Source: Flaccisagitta enflata
Lineage: Eukaryota
Direction: 5' to 3'
DNA: 64,000 nt
Assembly: GCA_965153355.1 (NCBI GenBank)
Contig: OZ231126.1
Coordinates: 15,872,001-15,936,000 of the forward strand
Of the stretch, positions 11,717-63,028 are shown piece after piece. The notes under the pieces were generated by a model. It did not search any database. It saw only the letters and a program-made list of their open reading frames with translations, and had not been told where the DNA came from. The number at the start of each line of letters is the position of its first letter. The stretch's first letter is position 1. Position numbers and translations under genes: made by a program.

Positions 11717-12148
11717 GAACAAGGTCGGATACCCGGCTACCCCAGTCGAGTGCGGGTGGGCAGGGGCCATATTTGAGGTCACTAGAGCGTTTGGGTAAGA
11801 GAAGTGAGGTGGAAGAATGAAACAAAGCCAACACTTATAAGTCGTGTGCGAGACATACTGACTTACAATGACTTAGAATGCCTGAGAATGATTTGGAATG
11901 ACTTAAAATGACCAAAAAGGACAAAAAATGATAAAATTACCTAATGACCAAAAATGACTTAGAATGACTTAAAACTACTCAAAATGACTCAAAATGACTT
12001 AAAATGACTTAGAATGACTTAGAATGCCTTAGAATGACTAAAAATGACTTAAAGCAATAAAAGTGATAAAAAAATTAGTGTGACCGACTGACCGACCAAC
12101 CGACCGATGTACAAAGCGGGTTGTAGAGTCGCGTGCACGCGACTAAAA
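11717..12148 (-). mobile_element. HINE/DINE-1-like element with internal 10-bp repeats
   Basis: AACAAGGTCGGATACCCGGC at the left, AATGACTTAA/AG repeats (11866-12052), (GACC)n, and the terminal hairpin AGTCGCGTGCACGCGACT followed by AAAA. Confidence 0.75.
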
Positions 12149-12480
12149 ACAAAAAAAGGAGAATGTGACAGACCGATGGATGGACGGATGGACAACGTGA
12201 GTGCAGAGTCGCATAGCACACGACTGAAAATGCTTCAACTTCCTCATGGATATCATCCTGATTAGTTTAGATAAAGCCGAGATGAAACAAAATCGGTGAA
12301 AACATCTGACTCGTTTTTAGTCCAATTTCCAAAGTACCGTGGTTAAATCTTTGTGTCTAAACAACCCAAAATTTAATATTCATATCACAACCACCTCGTG
12401 AGTTTTGATTGAAAATATCTAACTTGCAACTCAGAAAAGTGATTGAAAATCATATGATTTCTTATGGCTAGTATTATTGT

Positions 12481-12636
12481 AACAAGGCCGGATACACGGC
12501 AATCCAGTCGCGGACGGTTGGGCAGGAGCAGTAATGCGAAAGCCGCTCAGAATACAAAAATGTGACGGACAGAGGGACTGACCGACCGACCGACCGACCA
12601 ACACGGCAAGGTGTAGTCGCGTGTCCGCGACTTAAA
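12481..12636 (-). mobile_element. Short HINE/DINE-1-like element; related copies near 13257-13425, 22193-22388, 49941-50245, 52925-53073, 53407-53564, 55090-55257, 55808-55953, 58573-58737 and 62781-62961
   Basis: Read in the family orientation: TTTT-AGTCGCGGACACGCGACT (5' hairpin/subTIR), (GTCG/GTCC)n, CCGTCCGCGACT (subTIR), GGCCGTGTATCCGGCC (3' stem-loop), TTGTT. No TSD. Confidence 0.8.
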
Positions 12637-15600
12637 ATAACTAAGACCAATCAAATAATTGAATTCAGTGTATTTGAGATACTGTTAAATGTCATGCTGT
12701 TGCAAAAATTGGTACACAGGTGTCATTCCACCAAAAAGGCTCATGACTTGCGGAAGATCATTCAGTAAATTCGCTAGTTCATTAAGATGGAGTGAGATAA
12801 TTAAGAGAGTTTAGACTACTCTAACGTGAATTTGAACAAGGCAAGATACACGGCCAATAAGAAGCTGTCGTGGGCAGGGGCAGTAAAGTTGGTGGGCTGG
12901 GACAGCGACGTGCGGGGGCAGTAATGCTTAGATATCACTATTTCAGTCAATAATGCATCTTCTAAAATTTATTAGCCACCTACCCTCCTACCAAGGGACA
13001 CACCCTCCTTTAGTCGCTCAGCAAGCGATTTAATGACCTTTGATGCGAAGCGGTTTATGTGCTCAAATGGAGGCAGGTTGAAAACGGTCGTTTGCCATTG
13101 ATCTTGACGACGTCCAAATAGTCGACACTGGGATGTGTGGGATCGACCTCATGTGGTAAACAGTTGCAAGTGAGCTACCGACGTTGCCGGATCTTTGGTA
13201 TGGTGTGAGAGATAACAGGATTAGGAATAGATAGGAAAATGGGATGATCTTTAGGAACAAGGCCGGATACACGGCCATCAGTTGTGGACGGGTGGGCAGT
13301 GGTGGAAATGCAACTGACCGCAACTAATAATGTTCTAAAACGCTCATTTCCTCACTTTTCGACTCGTGTCCACGGACGGACGGACGGACAAAGCCTCTTA
13401 TAGAGTTGCCTGTCCGCAACTAAAAATTCCAAGTAGCCTATGAAAACGGACCAAGGATTTTCTGAGCTTGGCAAGAAAATTTTTCTGTTTGGCATCTTTT
13501 AGCCGCGTGTAAACACTGTAAACTGCGGCGGGCAGGGGTGTAGTGATATAGCGATAACATAAACCTTGGCGGGTCAGATACTTGGAATTTGGTTTCTTTA
13601 CATAGCAAAATTAGGAAATGTTTTGGTTCACTTATGCAATATTCAAAGGTGTTATTATTATAAAGATAATTATTTTTTGGACGACAGACCGATATTTCAA
13701 CTGATGGACTAGTATGCCAACTTCTTAAGTCACATGTATTCAATATAGATTCCTAACGTTTGCTGTGTAAAGCACCGAAACGTGGTTGTCAAATCCGAAT
13801 AGCTGTTTAATCTCTAGTGAAACAATGGCGGTAGTGATTTGCTTTGGTAAATCATCCTTATGAACCTTCTTGTACTTTCATTATTGAAAAAATTACCGGA
13901 TAGGTTTGTAGTCGCTCCAACTCATCAACAATTTAGTCATCTTTTATGTATTTGCTACATTTGTCTCATCTCACCGATTTTCTTATCATCACGACTGAGT
14001 TTTTTTTGCTTTATCATAATGTAATGAGCTTTTTTAAACCGTTCTTTTTGGTTCAAGCTAAATTATACTTTGTCCTCTTAAACAAGAAGTTAAGCTGAGT
14101 TGAATCTTATTTTGTTAACTCCGGCTTTGTTGAATATCAATGTTGCAAGAAACCTTGATTAAAACTCATTTAATTGACTAAATTGCCATCTTATTCTTCT
14201 GTTGGTGGACAGCCAGAGGTTTCTCTTTAGTCCAATGCGGTTGTCAAATTTTTTACGCATCCTCACATCCCTATAAGAGCCTTAAGAGGCCATGTCTATC
14301 AGTCTGTCTTGTGGTTACTCCATCATTGAAAATGTTCAATTCCAGCCATTCCATAGGATTCTGTCATGTTATCAAAAAAAGTAGTTATTTGAAAAGGACG
14401 CTTTGTTGGCCTCTCTGGCCTTATACCTCCACAGGCTGTTATGTGTGTGAGCGAGTGTGTGTGGACTCAATGGGGTTGCCAAGTAGGGCAAAAAATGGGT
14501 GGAATGATCATGGTAAGCTTTTCTATACCCAAAGTACTAAGAAATATCGAGCTGTTGATCTCATAATCCAATGATGCATCATCACCTTAACTATTTCATA
14601 CTCAAATGTATCAAGGTACTGTGGTATTACTATATAGGAAGTAAGTATACCAGGAAATGACATGAGGCAAGTGATTAATATGAATTGACTGCTTTTATTT
14701 ATTGTAATTGATTGATATCACAATTTCATTTGACATGTGATTAATATAAACTGAATGCTTTTCAAATAGATATCAGGGTTGGTTTTTTACTTTCCTTTCA
14801 TTTTATAAGAATTGAGGCTGAACAAGTTGCAGGCAATTGCGCAGGGCCAGTTATGAAATAAGCCAATCCAGAAATTTGGTTCGGATAAAATTGCAATAAT
14901 TGAAAAAAAAAAAAACTTATAAAATAGGCAGACACTCATATGGACTAACCTATACAGATGTAGCGATTAAAGTTACATCAATGTCACTAAAGATATAAAC
15001 AAAGTGCATTCCTTTCAAAAGCTACACATTTTGGAGGATTGATTTCAGATACATGTAGTGAAGCGCTGCTAGAATAGACTTTGACCTAAATTTCCTAAAT
15101 ATATTTAAAATTTCAAGTTGCTATCTCCAATAGTTCATGAGCATTTGTTTAAGATTTAATAGAAGATAATTGATAAAGGTTTATGCCAATTTGGCTACTT
15201 CCTTTAGACTGGCCTCCTTCAATAAAGAAAAATAATTGTTGGACGAGGTAGGAGCAGCGATGGTTTATGCTTTAATGCACCTGCTTGCTTGCCTGCTAGT
15301 TTTATGGCTCATCATATTGGTATATGTAGTTTTGTTGTAAGGCATAATAACGTCTTGTCTAGATTTTTTCTTTCAATTTTAAGTGCTTAGGGCGCGAAAA
15401 AGTATCAAGGCTGGAGGCATGGCTACTAAAGTGGGTAGGGGCAGTGATAAACAAGCTAACCAATCATTTGGGTGGGCGCAGTACTGCAAAAACCGCCTGT
15501 GAATACTGACCAACTGAAATAGCAGGTTAGTTGCGTGCAAGCAGTTAAGCATTTATTAAGGTAGTAGTCAAAATGAGTCTTATAACATTTCTGTCACGAT

Positions 15601-26347: not shown

Positions 26348-26756
26348 CTGTATCAAGTTAAAAGTTCATTACCCCTCACTACCCCTCAAACCACCCCTCA
26401 CCCCACCCCTCGCCTTACCCCACCCCTTGCCCCACCCTCGCCTTACCCCACCCCTCGCCCTACCCCACCCCTCGCTTTACCCTTGCCACCCCTCGCTACC
26501 CCTACATAATTTCAAACCACCCTTCACTTCTTGACCACCCCTAGCTACCCCTCACTACCCCTCACTTCCCCTCATGAGACATCTATAACTAATTTTAGCC
26601 AAATTTAATTATAACTCTTGGTGTAACTCGCCGATTTCCTTTCCAGTTTGTTCCTCCAGATCATTCAGCAGGCGATGTTCGTGGGTCGATAGCTCGCGAC
26701 AACGGCAAATTCTCTTCACTATCTAGGCTTTCCGCTCCTAATTGAAAAGAATCAAG

Positions 26757-37844
<11,088 letters not shown>

Positions 37845-40767: not shown

Positions 40768-43596
40768 CTAAGTAACGAGTAAGTTGTCTAAAGGAGAGAG
40801 ATGGCGATTGTCGGTTGAAGGCACATGATCATTAACAAGAGATTCAATGTGTGGGTTTTTCGATCTCATAGTATTAAGTAATTTTCCGTTTAGCATTAGT
40901 AGTCTCACAAATATTGGTTCAATAGCCGCATACTCATGAAGCAGTTCTGTTCGTATGTATCGCGGAAGACGCAGACAAATTCTAATGGCTTCATTTTGTA
41001 AGTGTTGAAGACGAGAAAGTTGGGTTTTGGGCGCCGACATAAATGCCGCACTACCGTATTCTACAATCGGTCTCACATAGACTTTATACAGCCGCATTAG
41101 AGTTGGTGCATCTGTACCATTAGAAGCCAGGACCCTCAGTACGTTCAGTCGCCGCGATGCTCGGTCAAGAACAGAGTCAGTGTGCTTTTTGAAAGCGAGA
41201 AGCCCATCAATTTCAATGCCGAGAAACTTAGCCGAATTTGTTGGTCGAATGATGTTGTCAAATAGATGCAACGCATAATTCTCTTCCTCGATACCGCGAT
41301 TCCTTGTTATGATGAGAAAGTTGGACTTATCACCATTGAGCTTAACTCGCCATTTCCGGCACCATGATTCTAACAGGTTCAGCGCCCTTTGTAATTTGCT
41401 AATTGAATAAGATCGAGTGAAGGCAGAAGTCCAAAGTGCCGTGTCATCAGCAAATTGCGACAAACTACAGAGCTCTTGGATTCCCTCCGGGTAATCATTA
41501 ACGTATATAATATATATGAGAGGAGAAAGAGGACTGCCTTGAGGTGTTCCTGCGTTTAAAGTGACTGTTTGAGAGTAGCATCCCTCGTAGAGTACCGTAA
41601 GCGACCGATCCGTGAGAAATGACGAAAGCAGTCGTATGATTCGTGATGGCAAGTTAAGATTCTTTTTTAACTTGTATCTAATACCGTTATGCCAGCAACG
41701 ATCAAATGCCGCTTCGGCATCCAGAAACAGCGCCGCCGTTGTTTGTTGTCGTTTGAACCCAGTATGACATTCTTCCGATAGACGTAGTAACTGCTCGCTC
41801 GTCATGTGCTTCCGCCGGAATCCGCTTTGAGAAGCTGCAAACAGGTTGTTTTCTTCAAGATGAGAAGAAAGTCGATTTGCCACTATCCTCTCCAGAACCT
41901 TTCCAATGCAAGAGAGAAGCGAAATTGGACGATAGTTTTTTGCAAATTTTGTATCTTTATTTGGCTTGGGGATAAGCTTAACAATAGCCGATTTCCACTT
42001 GACGGGAAAGTATCCAAGGTGAATGGCATCGGAGAAAACTTGACACATGTTTTGCTTCATTTTCTCTGGCAATTTTTTGATAAGGAAATAGCTTACGCCA
42101 TCTTGCCCAACTGCTGAACGATTCTTACATTTTGCAAGATTTAAATCCAGCTCATCAAGACTGACTTTTTGGCAAAGACTTGAATCGTCTCCAGGTTCCT
42201 CCTGTAGATAGGTCTCATTTTTGTCAATGGTGTAAGTTTTTTCATTTTGTTCTAGAAACCTCTCCACAGAAACTTTCCATCCGTCGTCAAAACCAACATA
42301 GTCTGGCTCTTGATGGATTCTCTGAAGTCGTTGAGCAAAGAGGTCTGCCTTCTCCTGGCTTGTTGTTGCTTTGGCACCATTCTCGTCTTCAATGCGTTTT
42401 TGTGACGAAGGCGGGGCATCTCCATCCGTGACTGATCGCGCTACAATGCCGAAAGTATGAAAGAATTTTCTTGAGTTTTTCTCGCGGTTTAGACTTTCAC
42501 AATGGCGCTCCAAATCTTGTTGCTTCTCCTTCTTTTGAAGTTTTTTAATTTCGTTACCAAGGCGATTGATCTTAGTCATAATCTCTCGGACCAGCATCAT
42601 ATTTTGCTGCTGCAAAGCATCATTTTTCTGCCTTCTCAATTTACGCTTCTCTTTCACCTTGACCTGGATCTCGGGAGTAAAGCGGTTCAGACTCGGTTTT
42701 TTTATTAATGTATTTGGGCAACTGCTTTCGAAAGCCGATGTTATTTGACTTGTCAGTAATTCCACATTTGCATCCAACTCGGCAGGTGTGGATGATGATG
42801 GAATGGGCCGCTGATTGTTCAAGATTCGATTCCATTTCGCCGTGTTCATTTTTTCTGGTTTTCTAACATATCGAGGCGATGGCGCTGACATGGCATCAAA
42901 TTGCAATAGAACATGCACTGGATAGTGGTCGCTCCCAACGTCGAATCCGACCCAAAAGTCCTTGAGCAATTGCGCTGAGTAAACGTTTCCAATCATGAGG
43001 TCGAGGCTTTCTTCCTTGCCCGTGGCTGGGTCACAACGTGTCATACTGTCGTTATTGAAAACGACAAGATTGTTTGTGACTAGACTCTGCATCAGTTCAG
43101 TTCCTCGCGTATCAGTTCGAGTGGAGCCCCAGAAAGTATTTTTGCAGTTGAGATCTCCAGTAAGTAGACAATTACCTCTCATGGATCCCACATAATTGAT
43201 AATGGCATCGTTTGGGGTGGTTAGAGGCGGATTATAATATGAGAATATTTTAAGACTTGGTCGCTTTCCATCACTTAGTATCTCTATGCCAATGATCTCT
43301 TCAGATCTAAATTTGTCTTTCACTTCTTCAATTTCAATTATGTCCTTTATATCTTTTCGAGCTAAGATCATGCTTCCGCGTGAGCCGCCAATCGAGTTAT
43401 GTTCGCGTCTTGCCGCAACATTATAGCCATTTACTTCATAATTTAGGTTCAACGGGAGTTTTGTTTCATTCAGACAAATCACTTCCGGGAACTTCATTTC
43501 AGCAAGATAATTTTCAAGGTTAATCTTATTGCTTCTTGCACCGCGAATGTTCAAGTGAACAACTTCATATTTGTACAAATGAGCTGGTTGATCCAT
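40768..43596 (-). CDS. LINE ORF2: APE endonuclease + reverse transcriptase, 942 aa
   Basis: APE motifs HLNIRG, CLNETKL, GDLNC and GSDHYPV. RT motifs YRPISLL, QSGFR, FLDAEAAFDRCWH, GTPQGSPLSP, FADD and KFLGI. No RNase H domain recognised. Confidence 0.95.
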   Translation of the reverse strand: MDQPAHLYKYEVVHLNIRGARSNKINLENYLAEMKFPEVICLNETKLPLNLNYEVNGYNVAARREHNSIGGSRGSMILARKDIKDIIEIEEVKDKFRSEEIIGIEILSDGKRPSLKIFSYYNPPLTTPNDAIINYVGSMRGNCLLTGDLNCKNTFWGSTRTDTRGTELMQSLVTNNLVVFNNDSMTRCDPATGKEESLDLMIGNVYSAQLLKDFWVGFDVGSDHYPVHVLLQFDAMSAPSPRYVRKPEKMNTAKWNRILNNQRPIPSSSTPAELDANVELLTSQITSAFESSCPNTLIKKPSLNRFTPEIQVKVKEKRKLRRQKNDALQQQNMMLVREIMTKINRLGNEIKKLQKKEKQQDLERHCESLNREKNSRKFFHTFGIVARSVTDGDAPPSSQKRIEDENGAKATTSQEKADLFAQRLQRIHQEPDYVGFDDGWKVSVERFLEQNEKTYTIDKNETYLQEEPGDDSSLCQKVSLDELDLNLAKCKNRSAVGQDGVSYFLIKKLPEKMKQNMCQVFSDAIHLGYFPVKWKSAIVKLIPKPNKDTKFAKNYRPISLLSCIGKVLERIVANRLSSHLEENNLFAASQSGFRRKHMTSEQLLRLSEECHTGFKRQQTTAALFLDAEAAFDRCWHNGIRYKLKKNLNLPSRIIRLLSSFLTDRSLTVLYEGCYSQTVTLNAGTPQGSPLSPLIYIIYVNDYPEGIQELCSLSQFADDTALWTSAFTRSYSISKLQRALNLLESWCRKWRVKLNGDKSNFLIITRNRGIEEENYALHLFDNIIRPTNSAKFLGIEIDGLLAFKKHTDSVLDRASRRLNVLRVLASNGTDAPTLMRLYKVYVRPIVEYGSAAFMSAPKTQLSRLQHLQNEAIRICLRLPRYIRTELLHEYAAIEPIFVRLLMLNGKLLNTMRSKNPHIESLVNDHVPSTDNRHLSPLDNLLVT

Positions 43597-45038
43597 TATG
43601 AGGTGGCTGAGGTACTTCCTTCTGGTTGCATGTTTGGCAAATCAGCTGGTGCAGGTTTTGGGAAGCATTTGGCCATGACACGCTCCTTGACGTCGTTGTG
43701 GTCAATCGGCGCTGAGGCTGGTCCAAATGGCAGCTTGTTGGCAGCATTGCTGACATTTGCAGCAATTTTTCCGACTTTGAGTGGCAAACCGATTTTGCTC
43801 ACATTTCTGTCTTGAATGTCGTAAGTCAGTTCGCAGACACATTGAGCCAATGCCTCCGTAAGCATCATGACAACACTTTCCTTAACCTCTTGAAGGATTT
43901 GCTGCAGGTATTCCCGCGTAACAGATGCAGAGGCGACTTGGGCAAAGGTCGGAGTTTTTTTCGAGTCAACAGCTCCACGTAGATTAGGACATTCCAATGA
44001 CCAAGCAGCATGTGAACCAGAGCAGTTGGCACATTTGAAGTTTTCTTTGGTCACTGTGCACTCTGATTTTCTATGCGGCCCGGCGCATAGGACACACTTT
44101 TGCTCAAAAGGGCAGTCTGCCACAAGATGATCTGCAATCTTTTGACACTTAAAGCATTGTTTTACCTTCGGATAGGATTTTGCATCTTCTTTAGCTGTTT
44201 CACATTTGTAATGCATCTGATCTAGATTAATGCCCGAGCGGAGGAGACTTTTTTTTGTTTCCTCATCTTTGAGGATAAGACGGAACAATTTTGTCGGTTT
44301 GCCATTAGCGCGACTTATGATCCTTTTCACTTTGCGGTAAGGAAGCTCTTGCCGCTGCAAGATCTCATCCATCTCTTCCTGAGTCACAGACTCGTCGACG
44401 TTTTTTATGATGACTTGATGAGTTATTTGCTGCTCCTTTGGAACACGTGCACTAACATTACTTCCAAGTGGACACTGTGCGGGAAAGGCGTCTTTCTTAA
44501 GAAGCGCGTTGCAATCCTTAGGATTTTTCGGTTTAACGAGGACGTCTCCAGATGCTGTCAATCGAAGACCATCTGGACGAAGCATAACATTTGGTTTTGC
44601 CTCTGCAAAAGCCTTGGAGAGTCGAGTCGGATGTTTTTTTGTCGCTTCGTCGACGCCTTCAAGAATGACGACCTGAGTAGCGTAATCGGTTGTTGATGCC
44701 GTTGACGACGACGCTGTGGACGCCGCTGACGACGCCGCTGACGACGCCGCCGACGACGACGCCGCCGATGACGACGAGGATGACGCCGCATTCGGTGGAG
44801 CCTTTTTCCTTTGTTGTTTTGGCGCCGGCGTCTCTTCAAATTCCGAGTCACTGTCGTCACGCTCACTAGAAAGCCTCGCCCTTCCTCGTTGCGTGTTTGA
44901 GCTGCAGCTGCCGAGCATATCTTGCAGTTTGTTGTTGAGCAGGGTCGTAACGGCGGAATCGAGGTTGAATCCGTTCCCGCCTGAGACAACAGCCGGCTCT
45001 TTCCCTTTTTGTCCCTTTTTGTTCTTGGATTTTGTCAT
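43596..45038 (-). CDS. LINE ORF1 gag-like nucleic-acid-binding protein, 480 aa
   Basis: Three Cys-His knuckles (CFKCQKIADHLVADC, CVLCAGPHRKSEC, CANCSGSHAAWSLEC) after an RRM-like region. Its stop codon overlaps the ORF2 start (TAATG). Confidence 0.92.
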   Translation of the reverse strand: MTKSKNKKGQKGKEPAVVSGGNGFNLDSAVTTLLNNKLQDMLGSCSSNTQRGRARLSSERDDSDSEFEETPAPKQQRKKAPPNAASSSSSSAASSSAASSAASSAASTASSSTASTTDYATQVVILEGVDEATKKHPTRLSKAFAEAKPNVMLRPDGLRLTASGDVLVKPKNPKDCNALLKKDAFPAQCPLGSNVSARVPKEQQITHQVIIKNVDESVTQEEMDEILQRQELPYRKVKRIISRANGKPTKLFRLILKDEETKKSLLRSGINLDQMHYKCETAKEDAKSYPKVKQCFKCQKIADHLVADCPFEQKCVLCAGPHRKSECTVTKENFKCANCSGSHAAWSLECPNLRGAVDSKKTPTFAQVASASVTREYLQQILQEVKESVVMMLTEALAQCVCELTYDIQDRNVSKIGLPLKVGKIAANVSNAANKLPFGPASAPIDHNDVKERVMAKCFPKPAPADLPNMQPEGSTSATS

Positions 45039-45311
45039 GATGACTTGTTCTCAGCAACCGAAGAATGAGGACATGAAAGAGAAAGAAAGGAAGAGGGAAA
45101 ATGTTTAGGTCACGTCGGTCACTAATATCAGGCCGAAGGACTGACTCTCACCAGATTCTGGTCGAATTCGCGCCCTGAAATATCTCGACGGTCGATTGAA
45201 TTGGTTGGCCTGGATTTGTCGTGGATCGTCCTATAATCTTTGATCACGTGTTTATCACCGACGTTCCCAAACAAGGTTTCCCGTGAATGGCCGCTTTTTG
45301 CAACGTATATC

Positions 45312-51301: not shown

Positions 51302-53072
51302 CTAAGAAAAGTTGACGTATTGAATTTCACTACGATAAAACGATTTGATGTCGTCTACGGGAATTTCAGTGAGAGGGGAACCGAAGGTGATGTCAGTCTC
51401 TTCTTTCTGGGAGCCGATTTGGAGTGGGGGTTTGACTAGAGGAGGAAGAACTCCCGGAGATATCACGATCCCTGAGTCCGCGCCTGGGTCAAAGATTAAA
51501 ATGATACAGTGGTTAGTATATGAAATGATATGATATGATATGAGCATGAGGTTTGTGAGAAAGATAGAATGCCAAAAAAATAGGATTAGGAGAAAAGGAG
51601 GCTGAGGAGAACGTAGAAAAGAGAGTTTGAACGGAAACAAGGGAAGTAGTGAGTGAAATGAGCGTAAACAAGAAAAAAGATGGGAGAAAAGCGAGCGGAA
51701 ATGGAAAAAGATTAATAACAAGAACATGGATATTCTATTCACGACATACCGGTTGATGGTCGTCTTTGTGCTATTGTTGGCGTGACGTCGTATCCGGATT
51801 GACTTTTGATCCCCAGCTCCGACTCATACCTCTGCAGGAGTAGAACATCATAACAATAATATTCTTGTATACATTTAGTTTTTTCTGTCATTGTGTAAAA
51901 ACCTGTAAATCTCACGACTATAATTCGGTCGCCACCTTCTACCTCGATTGTCTGCGCGAGATCCGGACTACCGGGTTTCTGTTTCGTCTTCTTACGCGTC
52001 TTCCGTTTCCGCTTTTGCTTTGACGTCACCGCCGGCGACGCTTCGCTAGATGAAGACCTTCCGTCGGTCGTTGGGTTCCTAATGCTGCTTTTGGGCGATA
52101 CGTCGGCGCCGAGCGTCAGTCTTTGTTGCGCCAAGGGTGGCACCGACGTCGACGACGATGGTTGTGGTGGTGGTAATCCCCACGATGGGCTGGTAGCCAA
52201 TTGAGTCGGTGGCCGACATTGTTTTTCACCCACGCCGTTTCTCAGTTCCATTCCAAAATTGCGTTTCTCTTCCTCGTTGAGCCCACCCGGTTTATCGTTA
52301 TCGTTTGTTTTTGCCGGCCCCTGCTGCTGATCGCTCGGAGCCACTCTGCCTTTATTCTTGGCGGAGCAGGAGGGAGTGTCCTCTGCAGCTTCCTTCGCCT
52401 TCTCTCGATTGGCTATTTCGCGATCTCGCATTAACATGATGTACGAGTACGTTGACAGTTTTTTGCTGGTGAGGTTGAGGGGTATCACAATAAATGAAAA
52501 ATATATACAGTAGATCTCATTCTAGACAAGTGAAGTCGCTGGGATTTCACCCTTCAAACTAACAGTACGCAGTTTCGCCGGCAGTAATCGAGCATAGCGG
52601 GAAGAAATTCAGCGTGATAAAAATTATCAATTTTTTTTAACGAGGAAGACACTCTCGCTTCGGATTAAAAACCCAATCCTGTTGGGGGGATAGTGGTGAA
52701 GGATGGATTTGTCATAAATTTTTCACGTAGGAGGCTCAACCATGGATTCTGTAGCCTAGAAGGAAATGGTCTTGAACAAAATAGTTATCAAGGGGTGAGA
52801 TTAAACCCCCTTGATTACTCGGGGTAGAACCCCGAGCCAACCCTGAGCAACCCAAGCTAGGAGTTGGCTCGGGGTTGCTCGAGGTTTGCTTAGGGTTGCT
52901 CGGGGTTGCATTGTTTGAAAAAAAAACCAGGCCGGATACACGGCAATCTAGTCGTAGACGGTTGGCCAGGAGCAGTAGGGCGAAAACCACTCTGAATTCA
53001 AAAATAAGACGGAGGGACCGACGGAGGGACCGACGGAGGGACCGACCAACACGGCAAGGTGTAGAGTCGCCT

Positions 53073-53162
<90 letters not shown>

Positions 53163-56100
53163 TATGTACAGCTGAGCTTCACTAGAGCGCATGCCAAGGG
53201 ACTGGGCAAAATTATACCTGATAGTAAAGCTGCCTTATTGCCAATATAGAAACAACTACAAACTCTCTCATAGGACTGCAAGTTCTATGCCTTACAGGCG
53301 GGCATGCCTTATTAGCGGGTGCGCTCTAGCGGTGCTCCACTGTATGTGCACTGAACTCACTAACAGAGTGATACAAACAACGAAGGCATTACATTGACTC
53401 TTTCTATTTTTAGTTGCGGAGACGCAACTCTAAAAGAGCCTTTGTCCGTCCATCCGTCGGTCCGTCCGTTGGTCCGTAAGCACGAGTCGAAAAGTGTGAA
53501 AATGCGCATTTCCGCCCCTGCCCACCCGTCCGCAACTGGTATTGGCCGTGTATCCGGCCTTGTTCCTAATCAGTTAACTATGGCCTGAACGAGGTTACAA
53601 TTCTCTCGAACTTGTTAGCTCTTTCATCAAAACAGTGTAAGAGGGGAAATCAGGGTAATAACTTTTTTTCTATTTCCCTAACAACCAGGAGACCGCCGTT
53701 GGTAACGTAACCACAATTCTTTCATGCGTCTAGACTTGAGATGACGGGGGCAAGGATAATGGGAAGAGAAATGAAGCGAGGGGACTGATATTTGGAATGT
53801 AAATAAATAAAACATTAATTTATTCCCCAGGATAGTCAGTTGCCATGGAAACACATTTCTATGTAGTTTCGCTAAAATATCAATATTTTTAGACGTTTTT
53901 TTAGGGAACATAGCTTAAAAAGAAATTTGCTACAACTTTTCCACAGTATGTTTTATGAAAATGTCGCTTGCTTGGCCATTGCTAGGGAGCATATCCATGT
54001 GTGACAACCCCCAGCAACCACTAAATGAGCGACATTCTTACAGAACATACTGTAGGAAAGTTATAGCAAATTTAATTTTCAAAAATATTTCCTCATAAAA
54101 TTTCTTAAAATGTTGATATTTTAGCAAAAATACATAGAAATGTTTCCATGGCAACCAGCTATTATGGGCAATAAAGCATCCCTTTATTAGTCTATGTTTC
54201 AAATACCACTCCCCTGCCTTTATTTATATTTCTACAATGCTTGCCCCCATTATTTTAAGTCTGGACGAGATCTACTGTATAAGATATATCAAAGATGTAC
54301 AAATATGTACAGATATATGTGATATTATCATGCTTTTAGGTGAGTGTTTTCATTGAAGTAAGACCCCAAGTTAGTCTTCGGCGATGAGCTTAAAAAAGCT
54401 ACTATCTTGCTAATGAATATATCGACATCTGAAAAAAAGCATCAACTTTAGAAAAATACTGCTCCCAAACAAAAAAAGCTACAATTACCAGATTGGTCTC
54501 ATTTTAAATATTTGTTTAAACTCTTTGAAATGCGACCAATCTGGTAATTGTAGCTTTATTTCTTTAGAAGCAGTACTTTTCCAAAGTTGATACTTCTTTT
54601 CAGGTGTTGATATATTTATTAGCAAGATAGTAGGTCTTACCTCATCAAGTAGATGTGGAATCCGAGCAGATGGCCGATTAGCCCCATGGCTAGCACGTTA
54701 AGAACGAGGTAAAAAAATGCAACCGCCAGCCATACTTCTTCGCTAGAAGGTGTCATGAAAATATAAAGACGCGCCGTAGTATTTGGAGTCGTAATGGACT
54801 GCGAGGTGCTAGTTGGCGATGCAGTTGTAACCGCGTCATCCTTGGATGGTCGCCAGTTTGAGTATAGCAAATCTCTATTTACAAAGTAGAGGACAATTTC
54901 AGTAACGGTTACGCCGAAGGCCAGGAAACAGAAGAGTATTGCAGAGACGAGACAAACGATGAATATTCGATAGTTGCGACCTCCGATACAATTGTTCAGC
55001 CAAAAGCAATGATGATCGAATTCCTGTTCGATGGCGTGCGTCAAAACAGTTAATGAATTATCTCGGCGTCATGCCCGCTATATGCCAGGGTCGTGAAGGC
55101 CAACCAAATTTTTAGTCGCGAACACGCGACTCTACACCTTGCTTTGATGGTCCGTCTGTCCATCGGTCGGTCGGTCCATTGGAAATGTTTTCGAAATATT
55201 TTGTCTTCTTGTGTCAATTTCTGTTATTTTCAGTACTGCTCCTGCCCAACCGTCCACCTTTTTTTTCTTCGTTGAGCTTGTTGATATTAAGTTTTGCTCA
55301 CCTCTATACATTTGTTGCAGTATGAACAATGCTTTGCTTCGTCCGTTACATTCGTCTCGCAGATATTGCAGTACAGATTTTCAATGACGTGCGCGTGCTT
55401 TGAGCGGTCAAAAGCTGGCAACGGAACCTATAAACAATTGAAATTAAGATCGAACAAGAAATATTAAAGAAAATTACTATTTAAATGATTTTGAAAGTGA
55501 TGGGATGGCAGACCATAGGAATACCTCAACTCTACCCACTAGTGCCCACAGGGTGGGAAAAAGTTCAGGTTGAGTGACCATTGCCCCCACCTGGTTTTTT
55601 AGGCTTTACACAATGTGGGGAAGTGTTTTCTAGCAAGAATTAAATCATCCTTGGGGCGCTTTTTAAAGTATATGAAAAATTCAACATTTTTGTTTGGAAA
55701 AAGTTTGCAGGTTGGTTTGACTTATTGTTTGACAGCATATTGTTAGTCCTGGTAAAATTCCCTTTTGTTTGATAGGTTGCACTATAGAGTTTCAAAAAGA
55801 AATACAATTTTTAGTTGCGGACACGCAGGTCTATAAGAGGCTTTGTCCGTCTGTTGGTCGGTCCGTGGACACGAGTCAAAAAGTGGGAAACTGCGCATTT
55901 CCACCCCTGCTCACCCGTCCGTAACTGGTATGGGCTGTGTAACCGGCCTTGTTATATTCTAGGCAGCCATTATGATATTTGTAATGGTGGTATAAAAAAT
56001 CAAGCTTTTATTTCTTTTCAAAACCCTATAGGTCATGGTGTACAGGAACAGGAAATTTTGGTTTCATATCACTTTTTGCTTGTGATTTATATTTATAAAC

Positions 56101-57368
56101 TAAAAATATTATTGTGATTTCAGTTAAGTATTTTTGATTTAATGTATTAAATGTTTTAACAATGTTTTTAAACCCAGAATACTGACTATAGTTTCATAAG
56201 AATCAGTAATAACAATTGAATGTTTGAATTCTTTAGAAAAATGGTGAACAAGATTTCAAAATGTTGTTGGGTGAAATTATATCACGGCCTCAGTAAAAAT
56301 AATTTTGTATTTCTAAGAACATGGCCCTTTTCTTATATGTTTTTATAAAAAGGCCATGTCTTTGTTCATGCAAATTTCTTTATTTCTATGCAATGATATA
56401 ATTTCACCTAATAGAAATGAGACGACAAAGTATAATTTTCTATAAAAAATCTTCTTTTTTCTACCTTATTTCAATACATTATGTACATCAAATGTGTATG
56501 TTAGAGATTATCTATGCAAAAATTTATTGTTCATCACTTAAAAAATGTTTTTTCAACAAAAAAAATTATAAAAAAATGATACCAAAAATATCTAAAAAAT
56601 TCAAATGACGCATGAAATTTCTTCTTCCCGTACATTGCGTCATAGTGCAACGTATCAAATTAAAGGGAATTTCCTTAGAAAAAAATAAGTCCGACCAATC
56701 TGCTAAATTTTTTTCTCAAAATCATGTTAAAAATCATGAATTTTTCATTTTTAAAAAAAAGCGCCCTAAGGAAGATTGAATTTGGCTAAAAAACACTTTC
56801 CCACATTGAGTAGAGCTTAAATACCAGGTGGGGGCAATGGTTACTCAACTTTACCATGATATACGACGTATAAAGATGGGCTGCTTATACTCACCTTTAA
56901 ATCACGGCCTCGGATATTAGGGTCGGCCGGATTCATGGAGACGCAACAAAATTGAGTGACAACATGTATAAAAGCTACCACGGCGGGTATCGTATAACCC
57001 GGGTATATGAAATAAGACCACAGCGCCGTTGCGATAGTGCAAAAGTAGTAAGAGACGATGAACACGAGAACGATCCAGGAAATCACTTGGCGAGGATGCA
57101 GAGGCCAGGTCCATCCATTTTTGCGACTGTTTAAGAAGAGAATATCATGGAAATTTGTTCACGAAGTTGACGTAGAAATATCAAAATGATTAATGAATAA
57201 TGATGAGAAAATTCGGCACTGTGCCAACCTGTGAGAGGAAAATTTCCGTATTTCCGTGGGTGGACCACCTTGCGACGATTGATGTCCATCAGAAACGCTG
57301 CTTGCGTATGAGTCAATGCTTTCTGTATTGTTTTCGACAGTTTGTCTTGAATTGTTTCTGCTCATCAT
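51302..57368 (-). CDS. DHHC palmitoyltransferase, ZDHHC1/ZDHHC11-like, about 555 aa; exons 57368-57229, 57126-56895, 55427-55302, 55023-54641, 52465-51943, 51831-51750, 51483-51302
   Basis: SRKNGWTWPLHP, two TM helices, FDRSKHAHVIENLYCNIC..AKHCSYCNKCIE|EFDHHCFWLNNCIGGRNY, two more TM helices, then LGFHIYLM|SKKLSTYSYI. Phases are consistent (1668 nt). The start codon and last two exons are less certain. Confidence 0.88.
52508..54277. mobile_element. TA-flanked palindromic MITE (arms ~53727-53990 / ~54020-54267) whose left tip is displaced by about 1.2 kb of inserted DNA
   Basis: TA|CAGTAGATCTC at 52508 matches GAGATCTACTG|TA ending at 54277. TCTAGAC appears at both 52521 and 53729. Each arm carries GTTGCCATGGAAAC. 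Confidence 0.6.
54399..54633. mobile_element. Hairpin MITE with ~110-bp arms
   Basis: CTACTATCTTGCTAAT...AAAGCTACAATTACCAGATTGGTC is mirrored by GACCAATCTGGTAATTGTAGCTTT...ATTAGCAAGATAGTAG. Confidence 0.85.
55568..56850. mobile_element. TIR element in ZDHHC intron 2 with a nested HINE-like copy
   Basis: GTTGAGTGACCATTGCCCCCACCTGGT..CAATGTGGGGAAGTGTTTT is mirrored by AAAACACTTTCCCACATTG..ACCAGGTGGGGGCAATGGTTACTCAAC. Confidence 0.75.
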
Positions 57369-58166: not shown

Positions 58167-60487
58167 TTAGGGTTTCCATGTAATGACTTTAACGGCGATT
58201 TCTGCTGCTCGGCGAACTGCCTCGCTCTTTTCCAAATCAATAGACGTTCGACTTCGGATCTAAATAACGATGATTGATGAAAGGAGAAAATTATCGATCG
58301 ACACAGGAAAGAAAAGGGGGAAAAAGGACGGAAATTCTTCCCACGACCAGATGAATGCTAGCCTGTTATATCATTAAAGTATGCGCCCTCGGAACTCCTT
58401 TACGCTTTTATTGGCGATACTGTTGGGGCGGTCGGTCGGGCTGTCATGCTTGCTCTTTGGCTGTTCACTTACTATTTGGCTCATTGTCAATTACACAATT
58501 GCTTCTCTTATTCTCTGCTTCTCTGCCCTGGCCAAATTGAATGCTCTCAGGACTTATTTCAAGTTGACAAAGAACAAGGCCGGATACACGGCATTGACGG
58601 CAATCCAGTCGCGGACGCGGACGGTTGGGCAGGAGCAGTAATGCAAAAACCGCTTGAAATTCAAAATGTGACGGATGGACCGACGGATCTACCGACTGAC
58701 ATGGCAAGGTGTAGAGTCGCGTATCCGCGACTAAAAAGGTCACTGTGTAAATGGTCATGTCACACCTGGTCAACATGATGGAGGAGATTCCTTCTGCCTT
58801 CCGGCGCTTCCGAAAGACAAGTAATGGCCTTGAGCGCATTGAGGCGCACTTCTGAGTTGTCAACGTTGACTAATCCCACCAAGTCCTTGATGGCCCCGCT
58901 TCGGATCGCGTTCTTCTTTCCCTATTTGTTTTAGATGCAAGTTTGAGAGAATGTAAACCCCATAATATATGATAAATACTACGTAGAGAATGATGATCAG
59001 TGGGGGCTGAACATTTTTGGGATGACAAAACTCAGTCTCACCTGAGTTGTGATCGTTATGGTCATGATAGCCCCTGCTGCTTTGGCCCTGACGTCAGTGG
59101 CTTTATCCTGGAGTAGTGTCACCAACGCTGGAAGCGCGCGCACTTCTACAGCCTTGTTCTTGCCGGCGAGTGGAACGGAGAGATCCATGATGTCCCTCGC
59201 GGCCTAAGTTTTGGAACAGATAGCTTGAATATCTTTGAAACAGAATTTTCTATCTCATGACTTCCCACAATCGGAAATTTTACCTTTGCTCGGATAGTGT
59301 CTATCGAATGAGTAAGCAAATCAGTGTAGACTTCCATGGCACCCGCGCCAAGAGCGTGATCAGTGTCAACCCGCATGCAAAAATGAAGGGTGTCCAAAAT
59401 CAGCTCTTTTATTTCATCCACTTCCGCTTGAAGTTTTGCTACCAACTGTGTAACAAATGAATTCGTCATCAATAAAATCCATCAAGCATTACTAAATCAA
59501 ACCTTCACCTGTTCCCTTATAAATCTTTTCATTTACCTTCGGTACGAGATTCGCTTCCACAATACCGGCAGCCCCAGGGGGCGTTTCTGAAATCATTTCC
59601 ATGGCCTGGACAGTAAGAACCGACGATGTTAATCTTTTCTCTGTCCATTCCAATCGCTGTTGGCGACGCAATTCTCCCATGCATTGGGTCTAATTCAACC
59701 TCACCTTGTGCGCGTTCTTTCTGGCGATGTCAACGGGGTCGTCGAACAACTTGGACACTGGGATTATGATCTCATTTTCGAGAAAGGCGTCTCTACCCAC
59801 CGCGTGACCCGCCATGACGTAAAGACATTCTGTCGCTTTTTGCCTAAAGATAGAAACTCTGAATAAATTTAATGTTTTTTCAAAGCTACCTTTTCTGACA
59901 ACGTGGAAATCTAAGCGCACAATTAAATAAGATGGGGATGCCTACCTGACAGTGGAATCGTCATCTGTCAGTAATCCTTTCAGGCTCTTTGCGATGCCCA
60001 CTCTTAGTGCCTCCGCGATATGTTCCGGATCGTGCAGGTAGTCGCATAGCGACATTAAAGCTCTTTGCCTCGTAAGCAACACATGATCCTAATAGGGGGA
60101 ATTAATTTCATGGCAAATATGATTCTAATAAATGCTGTTGCGGTTTCTGAGCAGACTCGCGAGAGGGAAAGAATACTGAATTCCACGGAGACGCTCATAG
60201 TCACAACGCAATCCTCCCTATTTCCTCCATACTGATAATGGGTCAGGGATCATTGTCTCAAGGGTCAGGGATCTTACAACTAGTTTTCATTGGATCCTGT
60301 TCATTCAATCTTATTCCCTTGTAAAATAAAGTTTAAAGAAAACGGTTCCAATTGGATCCGGAACCCGAGAGTACTGAGGTTTTTTTAATAGGTAGAAGTA
60401 AGCGCAATTTTTCTCTGAATGGTGATGATTCGCTATATAGCAGTAAAGATTTATGGTGTTTCAATTTAACTAAAAAAAACATAGAAA

Positions 60488-60527
<40 letters not shown>

Positions 60528-61093
60528 AGAGAGAAAGAGAGACAGAGAGAGACAGAGACAGTGGGAGAAACAGTGTATGTAGGCTGATGAGCCCCATGTT
60601 TTAGTGCATTATTTTTGCTCATCTTTAATCAAACTGAACAAAAGAAAATAATACATTCTCTTCTTGTGTCTTTTTCTTTCTCTCTTTTTCTCTCTTCATC
60701 ATACTATCCTAGCATTACACTGAGTGTCATCCACTGAATCACATTTTTTCTGAAAAAACTGAGCTTACTTTGTTTAGCTAGAAAGATAACCGGATCCGGT
60801 TCCAAACCTGGAACAGGATCCCAAAATCATTCTCTCAGGTTCCTAAGAAAGAAATAAAAGGAAAGAACCGGAACCGCTCAAATTAGTAGAAATGTCCCGG
60901 TTCCAATACAAATGGATCCATGTTCCATTAATGACAGCCTAAATGTGTTGTGTAGTGGGCAGTCATGACCATTTAACGGCGCTACCTGTAATTCTCGATT
61001 GAGCTTGGGCAAAGCTCTGTCGCCGTAGGCAAGCGGTACCCGGGTTGGGTCAATTTGCGGAGGGTATTTGGCGGAAATTACGGTGAATGCCAT
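58167..61093 (-). CDS. RSPH14: Radial spoke head 14 homolog (ARM-repeat; RTDR1), 343 aa; exons 61093-60986, 60088-59946, 59843-59705, 59605-59537, 59445-59284, 59203-59042, 58921-58766, 58259-58167
   Basis: Spliced translation MAFTVISAKYPPQIDPTRVPLAYGDRALPKLNRELQ|DHVLLTRQRALMSLCDYLHDPE...RLNALKAITCLSEAPEGR...AAEIAVKVITWKP* matches recalled RSPH14 N- and C-terminal motifs. All introns are GT-AG; 1032 nt. Confidence 0.92.
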
Positions 61094-61190
61094 GATTAGT
61101 TTTTGCTTCTTTTTTGGCGGTCGGGATAAATAAGTGCCTACACTGTTGAAATACGATAACAAATTACGCCAGTGGAAAAACGAGACTAAC

Positions 61191-61196
61191 TTTATT
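61191..61196 (-). terminator. Probable poly(A) signal AATAAA of DNAAF11
   Basis: About 50 nt after the stop codon and followed by a GT/T-rich tract. Confidence 0.55.
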
Positions 61197-61247
61197 TACT
61201 ATGAGAATGTAGGTCTTATGAGCACACATAAATGTCGCGATTCGTCA

Positions 61248-62759
61248 TTATTCAAGGGGGGGAACGTCCGGATCATCCACGAAGCCCTTGCTGTTCGGTC
61301 TCTCTTCTCCCTTAATCCATCGTGGCACGTCCTTAGCACAGTTCCTTTGATTTTCTTGGTCCTTGAGAATGTTTTTGTAATCGACTATTGGCTTGGTTTC
61401 TGCATTGGGAACTTCCAAGTAGGCCGTGGTTCGTTTGACGTCATCGCCGTAATTGTCGAATCCACCTTTTGACTTGTTCTCCTCTTTGATTTTCTCGATC
61501 GGTTTCTTCTTCGGCGTCTTCTTCTCTGTGAGAAAAAAAGGATGAGAAATTGAAAATGGGATTGAGCAAGAAACTAGAAAGTGAACGATGCTTAGATTGA
61601 CTTCGAGAAAGATTGACTGCTCACTGACAAATTGGCCAACCGCCAATATCCGATAGGCAATGGTGATTAACTGAATGGTTGATTAAATGGTTGGGTAATT
61701 AACTGAATGGTTGATTAAATGGTCGATTTATTAAATGGCCGATTTATTAAATGGTTGATTAAATGGTTGATTAAATGGTTGATTGAATAAATGGTTGATT
61801 GAATAAATGGTTGATTGATTAAATGGTTGATTGATTAAATGGTTGATTGATTAAATGGTTGATTGATTAAATGGTTGATTGATTAAATGGTTGATTGAAT
61901 TAATGGATGATTGATTAAATGGTTGATTGAATTAATGGATGATTGATTTAATGGATGATTGATTTAATGGATGATTGATTTAATGGATGATTGATTAAAT
62001 GGATGATTGATTAAATGGATGATTGATTAAATGGATGATTGATTAAATGGTTGATTGATTAAATGGTTGATTGATTAAATGGTTGATTGATTAAATGGTT
62101 GATTGATTAAATGGTTGATTGATTAAATGGTTGATTGATTAAATGGTTGATTGATTAAATGGTTGATTGATTAAATGGTTGATTGATTAAATGGTCGATT
62201 GATTAAATGGTCGATTGATTAAATGGTCGATTGATTGAATGGTCGATTGATTGAATGGTCGATTGATTGAATGGTTGATTGATTGAATGGTTGATTGATT
62301 GAATGGTTGATTGATTGAATGGTTGATTGATTGAATGGTTGATTGATTGAATGGTTGATTGATTGAATGGTTGATTGATTGAATGGTTGATTGATTGAAT
62401 GGTTGATTGATTGAATGGTTGATTGATTGAATGGTTGATTGATTGAATGGTTTTGTGGTTGATTGTGTTTGTGTGGTTGGTTGATTGATTGAATGGTTGA
62501 TTGAGTAGCAGAACGCTTGACTGATTGAATGGTGGGCTCTTCGCTCGCGACGCAGAAACTGTTGCTTTCGTTTACCTATGAGCTCGTCTGTGATTTTAGG
62601 CATCGTAACCAGGAGATGTCCCGTGACCTGCGACCGTTTGGCGGTGCTACTATCCGGCTTGACTTCCGTGTGAAGACGAAGTTGAAGAATTTTGCCCTTC
62701 AAAGTGACGCGAACGTAGAAAGGTTGCACGTCCACATCCACCAGTGACGTATCCATGTG
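61248..62759 (-). CDS. DNAAF11: Last two exons (62759-62576, 61525-61248) of dynein axonemal assembly factor 11 (LRRC6); no further upstream exon found in the window
   Basis: CS-like domain [55 protein letters not shown] and C-terminal [11 protein letters not shown]. The phase-1 join G+AG keeps the frame. Confidence 0.9.
61665..62530. repeat. 16-bp minisatellite (TTGATTGATT[A/G]AATGG) filling the last DNAAF11 intron
   Basis: Direct reading; variant blocks. Confidence 0.95.
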
Positions 62760-63028
62760 CTGGCAATGGAAAGTTGTACGTAGTCGTGTGCACACGACTC
62801 TATAACCCGCTATGTCCGTCGGTCCGTCGGACCGTACACTTTGCTTTTTTTGGGGCATTTTTAACGTTTTTTGCATTACCGCTCCTGCCCAAACTCTTGG
62901 TTAGGCTTTTTTATTACTGCCCCTGCTCACCCGTTCGCGACTTCGGTATTTGGCCTTGTTTGGTTTCTACCACGAATTATGATGAGTTTTAATTGTGGTG
63001 ATTTTTCCGAGCCAATTGATACAATCTT

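Follow-up and report, generated by a model that had tools for sequence, protein, structure and literature searches.

Do two adjacent genes for motile cilia form an operon whose RNA is resolved by spliced-leader (SL) trans-splicing, or are they two transcription units that lie close together? The question arises in the window (the whole 64,000-nt stretch of DNA analyzed here), where the stop codon TAA (61250-61248) of a DNAAF11/tilB-type gene is followed, on the same minus strand, by the ATG (61093-61091) of an RSPH14-type gene, with 154 nt between them (61247-61094). The earlier note, made from the sequence alone, had read this gap as part of a trans-spliced operon. The same-strand spacing of 154 nt that it gave is borne out by the minus-strand coordinates, and the confirmed gene models provide at least two same-strand genes with a short intercistronic region (Table 1). 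DNAAF11 and RSPH14 are a real tight tandem pair. Our best single reading, which we put forward only tentatively, is an operon whose RNA would be cleaved and polyadenylated after 61191 and trans-spliced to an SL at 61143; an independent or overlapping start of RSPH14 is nearly as likely.

Table 1. Features of the DNAAF11-RSPH14 locus, in the order of transcription. Exon borders are marked by a slash; the last column compares the reference with one other allele (the contig from RNA run X4) and thus describes a single allele pair.
Feature	Position	Strand	Length (nt)	Evidence and remarks	Substitutions, indels
DNAAF11-type penultimate exon (CS-domain part)	62576..62759	-		tblastn of P0001; borders cAG/CAC and ATAG/GTAAAC	
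DNAAF11 last intron	61526..62575	-	1050	mostly a 16-nt tandem array (61664-62452); X1 and X4 RNA contigs leave the genome here	
DNAAF11-type last exon, including stop TAA	61248..61525	-	278	88 of 90 residues (98%) identical to P0001	4, 0
DNAAF11 3'UTR up to the poly(A) signal	61192..61247	-	56	short upstream ATG at 61231	0, 0
AATAAA, likely DNAAF11 poly(A) signal	61196-61191	-		sole AATAAA/ATTAAA in 61000-61260	
GTTAGT	61190-61185	-		directly 3' of AATAAA	
U-rich linker from poly(A) signal to acceptor	61154..61191	-	38	fast-evolving	6, 3
Branch-like CGTAAT	61168-61163	-		3' of a T-rich stretch; same in the X4 allele	
Candidate 3' splice (trans-splice) acceptor	61143..61160	-		GTTATCGTATTTCAACAG; 9/15 pyrimidines; X1 RSPH14 contig starts at 61144	0, 0 (last 11 nt)
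RSPH14 5'UTR, if the acceptor is used	61094..61142	-	49	covered by X1 and X4 contigs	2, 0
RSPH14-type exon 1	60986..61093	-	108	36 codons; donor CAG/GTAGCG; P0002 residues 1-36 at 100%; X1 and X4 contigs exit the genome at 60985 with identical exon-2 letters	1, 0
RSPH14-type exons 2-8 (stop included)	60088-59946, 59843-59705, 59605-59537, 59445-59284, 59203-59042, 58921-58766, 58259-58167	-		gene model	

The identities proposed for the two genes held when examined through the relatives of two proteins, P0001 and P0002, and through a match in the PDB. P0001 is a 455-aa protein from a transcript-sized contig and carries precomputed hits to LRR-family Pfam entries; 2080 of 8000 candidates scored against its whole length reached E≤0.001, and the top-scoring named proteins were dynein axonemal assembly factor 11, protein tilB, and LRRC6 (E about 1e-113 to 1e-126). 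The Pfam hits and the named relatives together place the gene in the DNAAF11/LRRC6/tilB family. Only its last two exons fall within the window, the earlier ones lying past the window end, and jointly these two match the C terminus of P0001 at 151 of 154 residues. The CS-domain exon had no significant match in the PDB (E 0.27 and 0.55). The tandem array in the last intron repeats its unit ∼50 times (94% matches), and periodicities of 12 nt overlap it and extend up to 62504.

P0002 (343 aa) is the nearest match to the downstream gene and maps to its eight exons with its start exactly at the ATG at 61093; the gene model likewise encodes 343 aa, 327 of them identical to P0002. P0002 is itself 61-74% identical to 15 named RSPH14 proteins. 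One exon of the gene matches PDB entries titled ‘Radial spoke head 14 homolog’ (8j07_T, E 4.8e-6; 9fqr_Fj, E 4.5e-5), and the same exon matches 26 proteins among 57 candidates. In length and orthology, the gene belongs to the RSPH14/RTDR1 family, whose proteins of ∼340 aa are made of armadillo-type repeats. Its introns measure 897, 102, 99, 91, 80, 120, and 506 nt, which agrees with the 80 nt given by the earlier note for the smallest intron. The same list qualifies that note's description of many introns as kilobases of transposons, since all but two of the seven RSPH14 introns measure just 80-120 nt, and the 1050-nt last DNAAF11 intron is a tandem array rather than a transposon. RSPH14 intron 1 is matched at 60814-60954, over 58-139 nt, by a pair of small X4 contigs (189 and 1322 nt), which then run on into unrelated sequence; they may derive from a repeat fragment expressed elsewhere or from an allele with a rearranged intron.

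Several other features of the surroundings were observed. A dispersed repeat at 58570-58740 has copies at 12079-12149, 12481-12637, 52921-53073, 53506-53565, 55109-55255, and 62781-62892, which align over ∼70-170 nt at 70-93% identity, occur on both strands, and lie inside introns of three neighbouring genes; from its sequence it looks like a SINE- or MITE-like element. The minus strand at 40768-45050 has a long open frame of 957 aa that resembles an endonuclease plus reverse transcriptase and, head to tail with it, one of 484 aa that bears cysteine-rich knuckles; the region looks like a young non-LTR retrotransposon. The plus strand carries, at 26742-27815 and 31437-37844, a gene, one exon of which is giant (2135 open codons, with abundant Pro, Ser/Arg, and Glu/Lys) and whose N-terminal exon we presume to resemble RBBP6 (ubiquitin-like start, zinc knuckle, RING-like cysteines). 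Downstream of RSPH14 lies a DHHC-type palmitoyltransferase gene (54637-57368, minus strand), whose likely ATG at 57368 is ∼800 nt past the RSPH14 stop (58169-58167), with an AATAAA at 57921-57916 between the two.

If the pair is an operon, RNA polymerase would start at a DNAAF11 promoter outside the window and run through the 154-nt gap, the upstream mRNA would be cleaved and polyadenylated slightly downstream of the AATAAA, and the RSPH14 mRNA would receive its capped 5' end through SL trans-splicing at the acceptor ending at 61143, which would leave it a 5'UTR of 49 nt. The alternative of nearly equal weight is that the two genes are separate or overlapping transcription units: RSPH14 would start either near 61144, where a pyrimidine-purine step (C-A) lies, or farther upstream, within the DNAAF11 3' end; the acceptor would be unused, and any RNA that joins the two genes would reflect read-through or overlap between the DNAAF11 3'UTR and the RSPH14 5'UTR.

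The anatomy of the gap is as the earlier note described it, with AATAAA, GTTAGT, and ...TTTCAACAG at exactly the positions claimed. The predicted acceptor closes the stretch ...TTATCGTATTTCAACAG, which ends at 61143 on the minus strand, with the ATG 49 nt further 3', and its pyrimidine count lies within the range of 6-13 found for eight real acceptors. Such motifs are not rare. AATAAA was present in 12.9% of 20,000 shuffles of the gap, and of the 1383 YAGs on the minus strand 446, or ∼7 per kb, are acceptor-like in that pyrimidines fill 9 or more of the 15 positions before them; among 2554 random stretches of 154 nt, 68 (2.7%) contain an AATAAA followed 10-80 nt later by an acceptor-like site. 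The abundance of acceptor-like sites and the frequency of the whole layout both favour separate units, and the gap motifs by themselves are weak evidence. What goes beyond chance is their position, exactly between two confirmed same-strand genes.

Promoter motifs were sought in the same region. No TATA variant was present in 61090-61400, and a loose X-box pattern, built like its strict counterpart on the X-box consensus, was absent from 60900-61800 and occurred 123 times window-wide (1.9 per kb); the strict X-box pattern was absent from the whole window. The missing TATA and X-box motifs would count, as weak evidence, against a promoter between the genes and so against separate units.

RNA was available from public sequencing runs, of which 16 were listed; 14 contained part of the stretch, and 13 of these were RNA, from 7 studies. 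All of the matching RNA runs are marine metatranscriptomes, and the proportion of sampled words found was below 0.5 in each (maximum 0.49). Four of the listed runs (X1, X4, X5, and X15) were aligned to 60600-61660. Contigs assembled from such runs show presence and not absence, so that holes in their coverage prove nothing, and a contig over two genes may be a merger of overlapping transcripts in the De Bruijn graph. The loose ends of the X1 and X4 contigs at 61532 reflect the aligner, which runs 7 similar bases past the true exon border at 61525.

In X4, one contig of 1767 nt is unbroken over 60985-61532 and covers both genes and the entire unspliced gap, differing from the reference at 14 letters and 5 gap positions. 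At its upstream end, 111 letters correspond to the previous DNAAF11 exon, and at its downstream end more than 255 letters correspond to RSPH14 exon 2; because the contig runs into neighbouring exons on both sides, it represents spliced RNA that holds both genes and the gap. The gap is transcribed through in at least one natural population. This crossing RNA is what a polycistronic precursor would look like, and we infer that it may be one; the tendency of De Bruijn contigs to fuse overlapping transcripts speaks for separate units instead.

In X1, each of the two genes has a contig of its own. That of DNAAF11 ends at 61238, and that of RSPH14 (1865 nt) starts, with no extra letters in front, on the A of the predicted acceptor AG, at 61144. 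Between them, 61145 to 61237 is uncovered; a long collinear 5'UTR is thereby made less likely for that population, to the extent that a hole in contig coverage can do so, as holes prove nothing. For separate units, the start of this contig exactly at the predicted AG would be a coincidence. Judged from lengths only, and if it is collinear with the genome, the same contig would extend ∼780 nt beyond the RSPH14 stop, to within ∼20 nt of the palmitoyltransferase ATG. X5, an oligo-dT run, gave one contig of 203 nt, restricted to 61221-61423, and its coverage fits a DNAAF11 mRNA 3' end with a poly(A) site within the gap. X15, examined as raw reads, yielded only 9 partial reads at 90-95% identity on 61411-61460 and does not inform on the gap. 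These reads are from a related species and match just a 50-nt piece of the DNAAF11 last exon, the flanks being diverged; judging from this conservation, 61411-61460 is probably one strongly conserved C-terminal motif of DNAAF11. Pattern scans of metagenome contigs for RSPH14 exon 1 and for the DNAAF11 last exon returned 0 and 0 transcript contigs.

A spliced leader is what an operon of this kind should leave behind. None of the aligned contigs contains a non-genomic leader joined at 61142, it being a property of contigs that they tend to lose 5' leaders that are shared and poorly covered. Nor did a translated leader appear in the RSPH14 protein cluster (13 members), in which two proteins have N-terminal extensions: P0157, a 390-aa protein called from the X4 contig with the gap read through, and P0154, whose extension of 13 residues resembles the 5'UTR translated with small indels. 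A search of the whole 64,000-nt window against Rfam at gathering thresholds gave 0 matches. Because the X1 RSPH14 contig starts with the genomic AG, some RNA there is collinear with the genome and does not carry a leader, and the X4 contig likewise passes through the acceptor collinear and without a break. All of the RNA at the acceptor thus follows the genome, with neither a leader nor a splice joint, as separate units would have it. The trans-spliced operon proposed by the earlier note is partly supported, in its genes, their order, the anatomy of the gap, and one contig that holds both genes and the gap; the leader expected at 61142 was found in no contig and in no extended protein.

The leaders tabulated for two arrow-worm species are 33-36 nt long and all end in ...TTTAAA or ...ATTAAA (PMC2481426, Table 3). 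Since these leaders end in A, a break in the assembly graph between leader-bearing and collinear RNA would be expected at 61142 rather than at 61144, and the start at 61144 is not simply explained by a leader of that type. It could be a coincidence, a break caused by polymorphism or coverage at the margin of the variable linker, a genuine start of transcription at the C-A step, or the mark of an upstream partner that ends in AG.

Comparison of the reference with the X4 allele, a single allele pair, gave a graded pattern across the gap (Table 1). The 3'UTR, the acceptor, and the RSPH14 5'UTR are constant or nearly so, and the U-rich linker between them varies freely. From the sequence, this pattern would suit an intercistronic region and not a core promoter, which for a start at 61144 would have to occupy -10 to -47; under separate units, that promoter (61154-61191) would coincide with the 38 nt that vary most at this locus (6 substitutions, 3 indels). 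In the X4 allele the linker carries four G to T changes on the coding strand and is more U-rich, with CGTAAT the same, and its indels shift the frame; the gap is therefore non-coding. In the X4 allele, which is the one that reads through, the AATAAA is also changed, to AATAAG, with an adjacent insertion. Its crossing RNA may perhaps reflect an allele-specific failure of termination, helped by the weakened poly(A) signal.

Is the organism one in which such operons are to be expected? DNAAF11 is only 48-55% identical to its counterparts in every phylum sampled, which is the level seen between the other phyla (median 54) and less than the within-phylum medians of 57-85, and its highest median identity is to rotifers (54). 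In a quick IQ-TREE analysis (63 rows), it was sister to bdelloid rotifers with an SH-aLRT of 89 (unstarred), both branches being long, and three starred clades, Mollusca (97), Echinodermata (98), and Tunicata (98), did not include it; the Cnidaria clade had an SH-aLRT of 93, unstarred. No arthropods were present among the best 120 DNAAF11 hits. On these grounds we reject a mollusc, tunicate, echinoderm, or arthropod and, on identity only, a cnidarian. This divergence would fit Chaetognatha. By elimination, we consider it somewhat more likely than not that this abundant animal of the marine plankton, with its motile-cilia genes and slight pull towards rotifers, is an arrow worm. Arrow worms do have SL operons. 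Trans-splicing affects 10,197 of the 21,072 genes of Paraspadella gotoi, and operons defined by a gap of less than 250 bp number 2,151 candidates, 1,470 of them validated by a leader; there is no operon-specific leader, and the operon genes are biased toward housekeeping functions, yet are prominent among germline markers (PMC12460157). An RPS14-PCNA operon is described in Spadella cephaloptera, and the same study includes an operon with 3 nt from the poly(A) site to the acceptor (PMC2481426).

The likeness to these operons (PMC2481426, PMC12460157) lies in same-strand genes, a gap of less than 250 bp, and a poly(A) signal near the downstream 3' splice site, with germline or cilia-bearing tissues as plausible sites of expression. 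There are also differences. No leader was present in the contigs here, and the ...TTTAAA end of the published leaders does not explain a start at the genomic AG; the published operons are enriched for housekeeping genes, whereas the present pair consists of two specialised motile-cilia genes; and P. gotoi has a compact genome, in contrast to the repeat-rich surroundings of this locus. By analogy with arrow worms, we infer that this animal may have spliced leaders and that the acceptor ending at 61143 would be used in trans.

Outside arrow worms, two systems invite comparison. SL2-type operons of Caenorhabditis elegans have a poly(A) signal, a U-rich linker of ∼50-100 nt, and an unpaired 3' splice site, a layout that matches the one seen here; the phylum and the leaders differ. 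Read-through or conjoined tandem genes, in animals without trans-splicing, are usually rare and spliced exon to exon. They share with this locus a collinear RNA over two adjacent same-strand genes, and the crossing allele here does have an altered poly(A) signal; unlike in conjoined genes, however, the RNA here keeps the gap unspliced, and each of the two mRNAs is also present by itself.

The balance can now be drawn. For the operon we count the 154-nt spacing, the X4 crossing RNA, and the start of an X1 contig within 2 nt of an acceptor predicted from sequence, together with the DNAAF11 3' end in X5, the allele pattern, the lack of promoter motifs, and a DNAAF11 divergence that fits Chaetognatha. 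Against it we count the lack of a leader, the start at 61144, the merging of contigs, the common kind of acceptor (∼7 per kb), the altered AATAAA in the crossing allele, and a phylum placed by elimination and by one weak single-gene tree with long branches.

The remaining alternatives are all improbable. In the first, RSPH14 would begin with a distant non-coding exon, located upstream of DNAAF11 or inside it, and cis-splicing would join this exon to the acceptor at 61143. It would account for the X1 start at 61144 as a graph break between two upstream contexts that both end in AG, as 7 of the 7 RSPH14 exons that precede an intron do; it also needs a same-strand gene nested in another, and the four runs aligned show no joint or loose end at 61142-61144. 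More improbable still is a stable bicistronic mRNA as the functional product, with RSPH14 translated by re-initiation or internal entry. The X4 contig, which spans both genes at one mean depth, is what it predicts, but X1 has the two genes on separate contigs, the oligo-dT run X5 points to a DNAAF11 3' end in the gap, and the upstream ATG in the gap (61231) differs in frame between alleles. The least credible is the caveat that the earlier note itself had raised, that a 48-nt intron in the 5'UTR uses GTTAGT at 61190 as its donor and the RSPH14 promoter lies inside the end of DNAAF11: the GT at 61190 and the AG at 61143 are indeed present in both alleles, but none of the four runs aligned has a 61190-61143 splice joint, the X4 contig keeps the 48 nt, the donor (AAA/GTTAGT) lacks the exonic AG and the +3 purine of 7 of 7 RSPH14 donors (AG/GTR), and the length is far below that of the smallest RSPH14 intron (80 nt).

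For the SL-resolved operon that we tentatively prefer, a further claim could be made: that DNAAF11-RSPH14 is a selectively maintained motile-cilia operon, in which the genes for an axonemal dynein assembly factor and a radial-spoke protein would share a transcript that trans-splicing then splits, in a phylum whose operons are biased toward housekeeping genes. We regard this stronger claim as unlikely, and less likely still a variant of it in which the animal comes from a lineage where trans-splicing is not yet known. The palmitoyltransferase gene ∼800 nt downstream might be a third member of the operon. A literature search, which covered sources other than the possibly relevant operon table of PMC12460157, found nothing that links RSPH14, DNAAF11, LRRC6, or RTDR1 to an operon or to trans-splicing.

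What the locus means depends on which reading holds. If the promoters are separate or overlapping, this is an ordinary compact gene pair, and either way the locus adds little to genome-wide operon surveys. If it is an arrow-worm operon, it is one of the thousands expected in the phylum, unusual solely in that the two genes share a role in motile cilia. As a rule, animal operons mix functions, and a true functional operon would be a rare animal case of an operon that groups genes of one organelle function. As an operon, the motile-cilia pair would then offer a small, clean example of functional clustering and a marker locus for the way in which arrow-worm-type operons are resolved.
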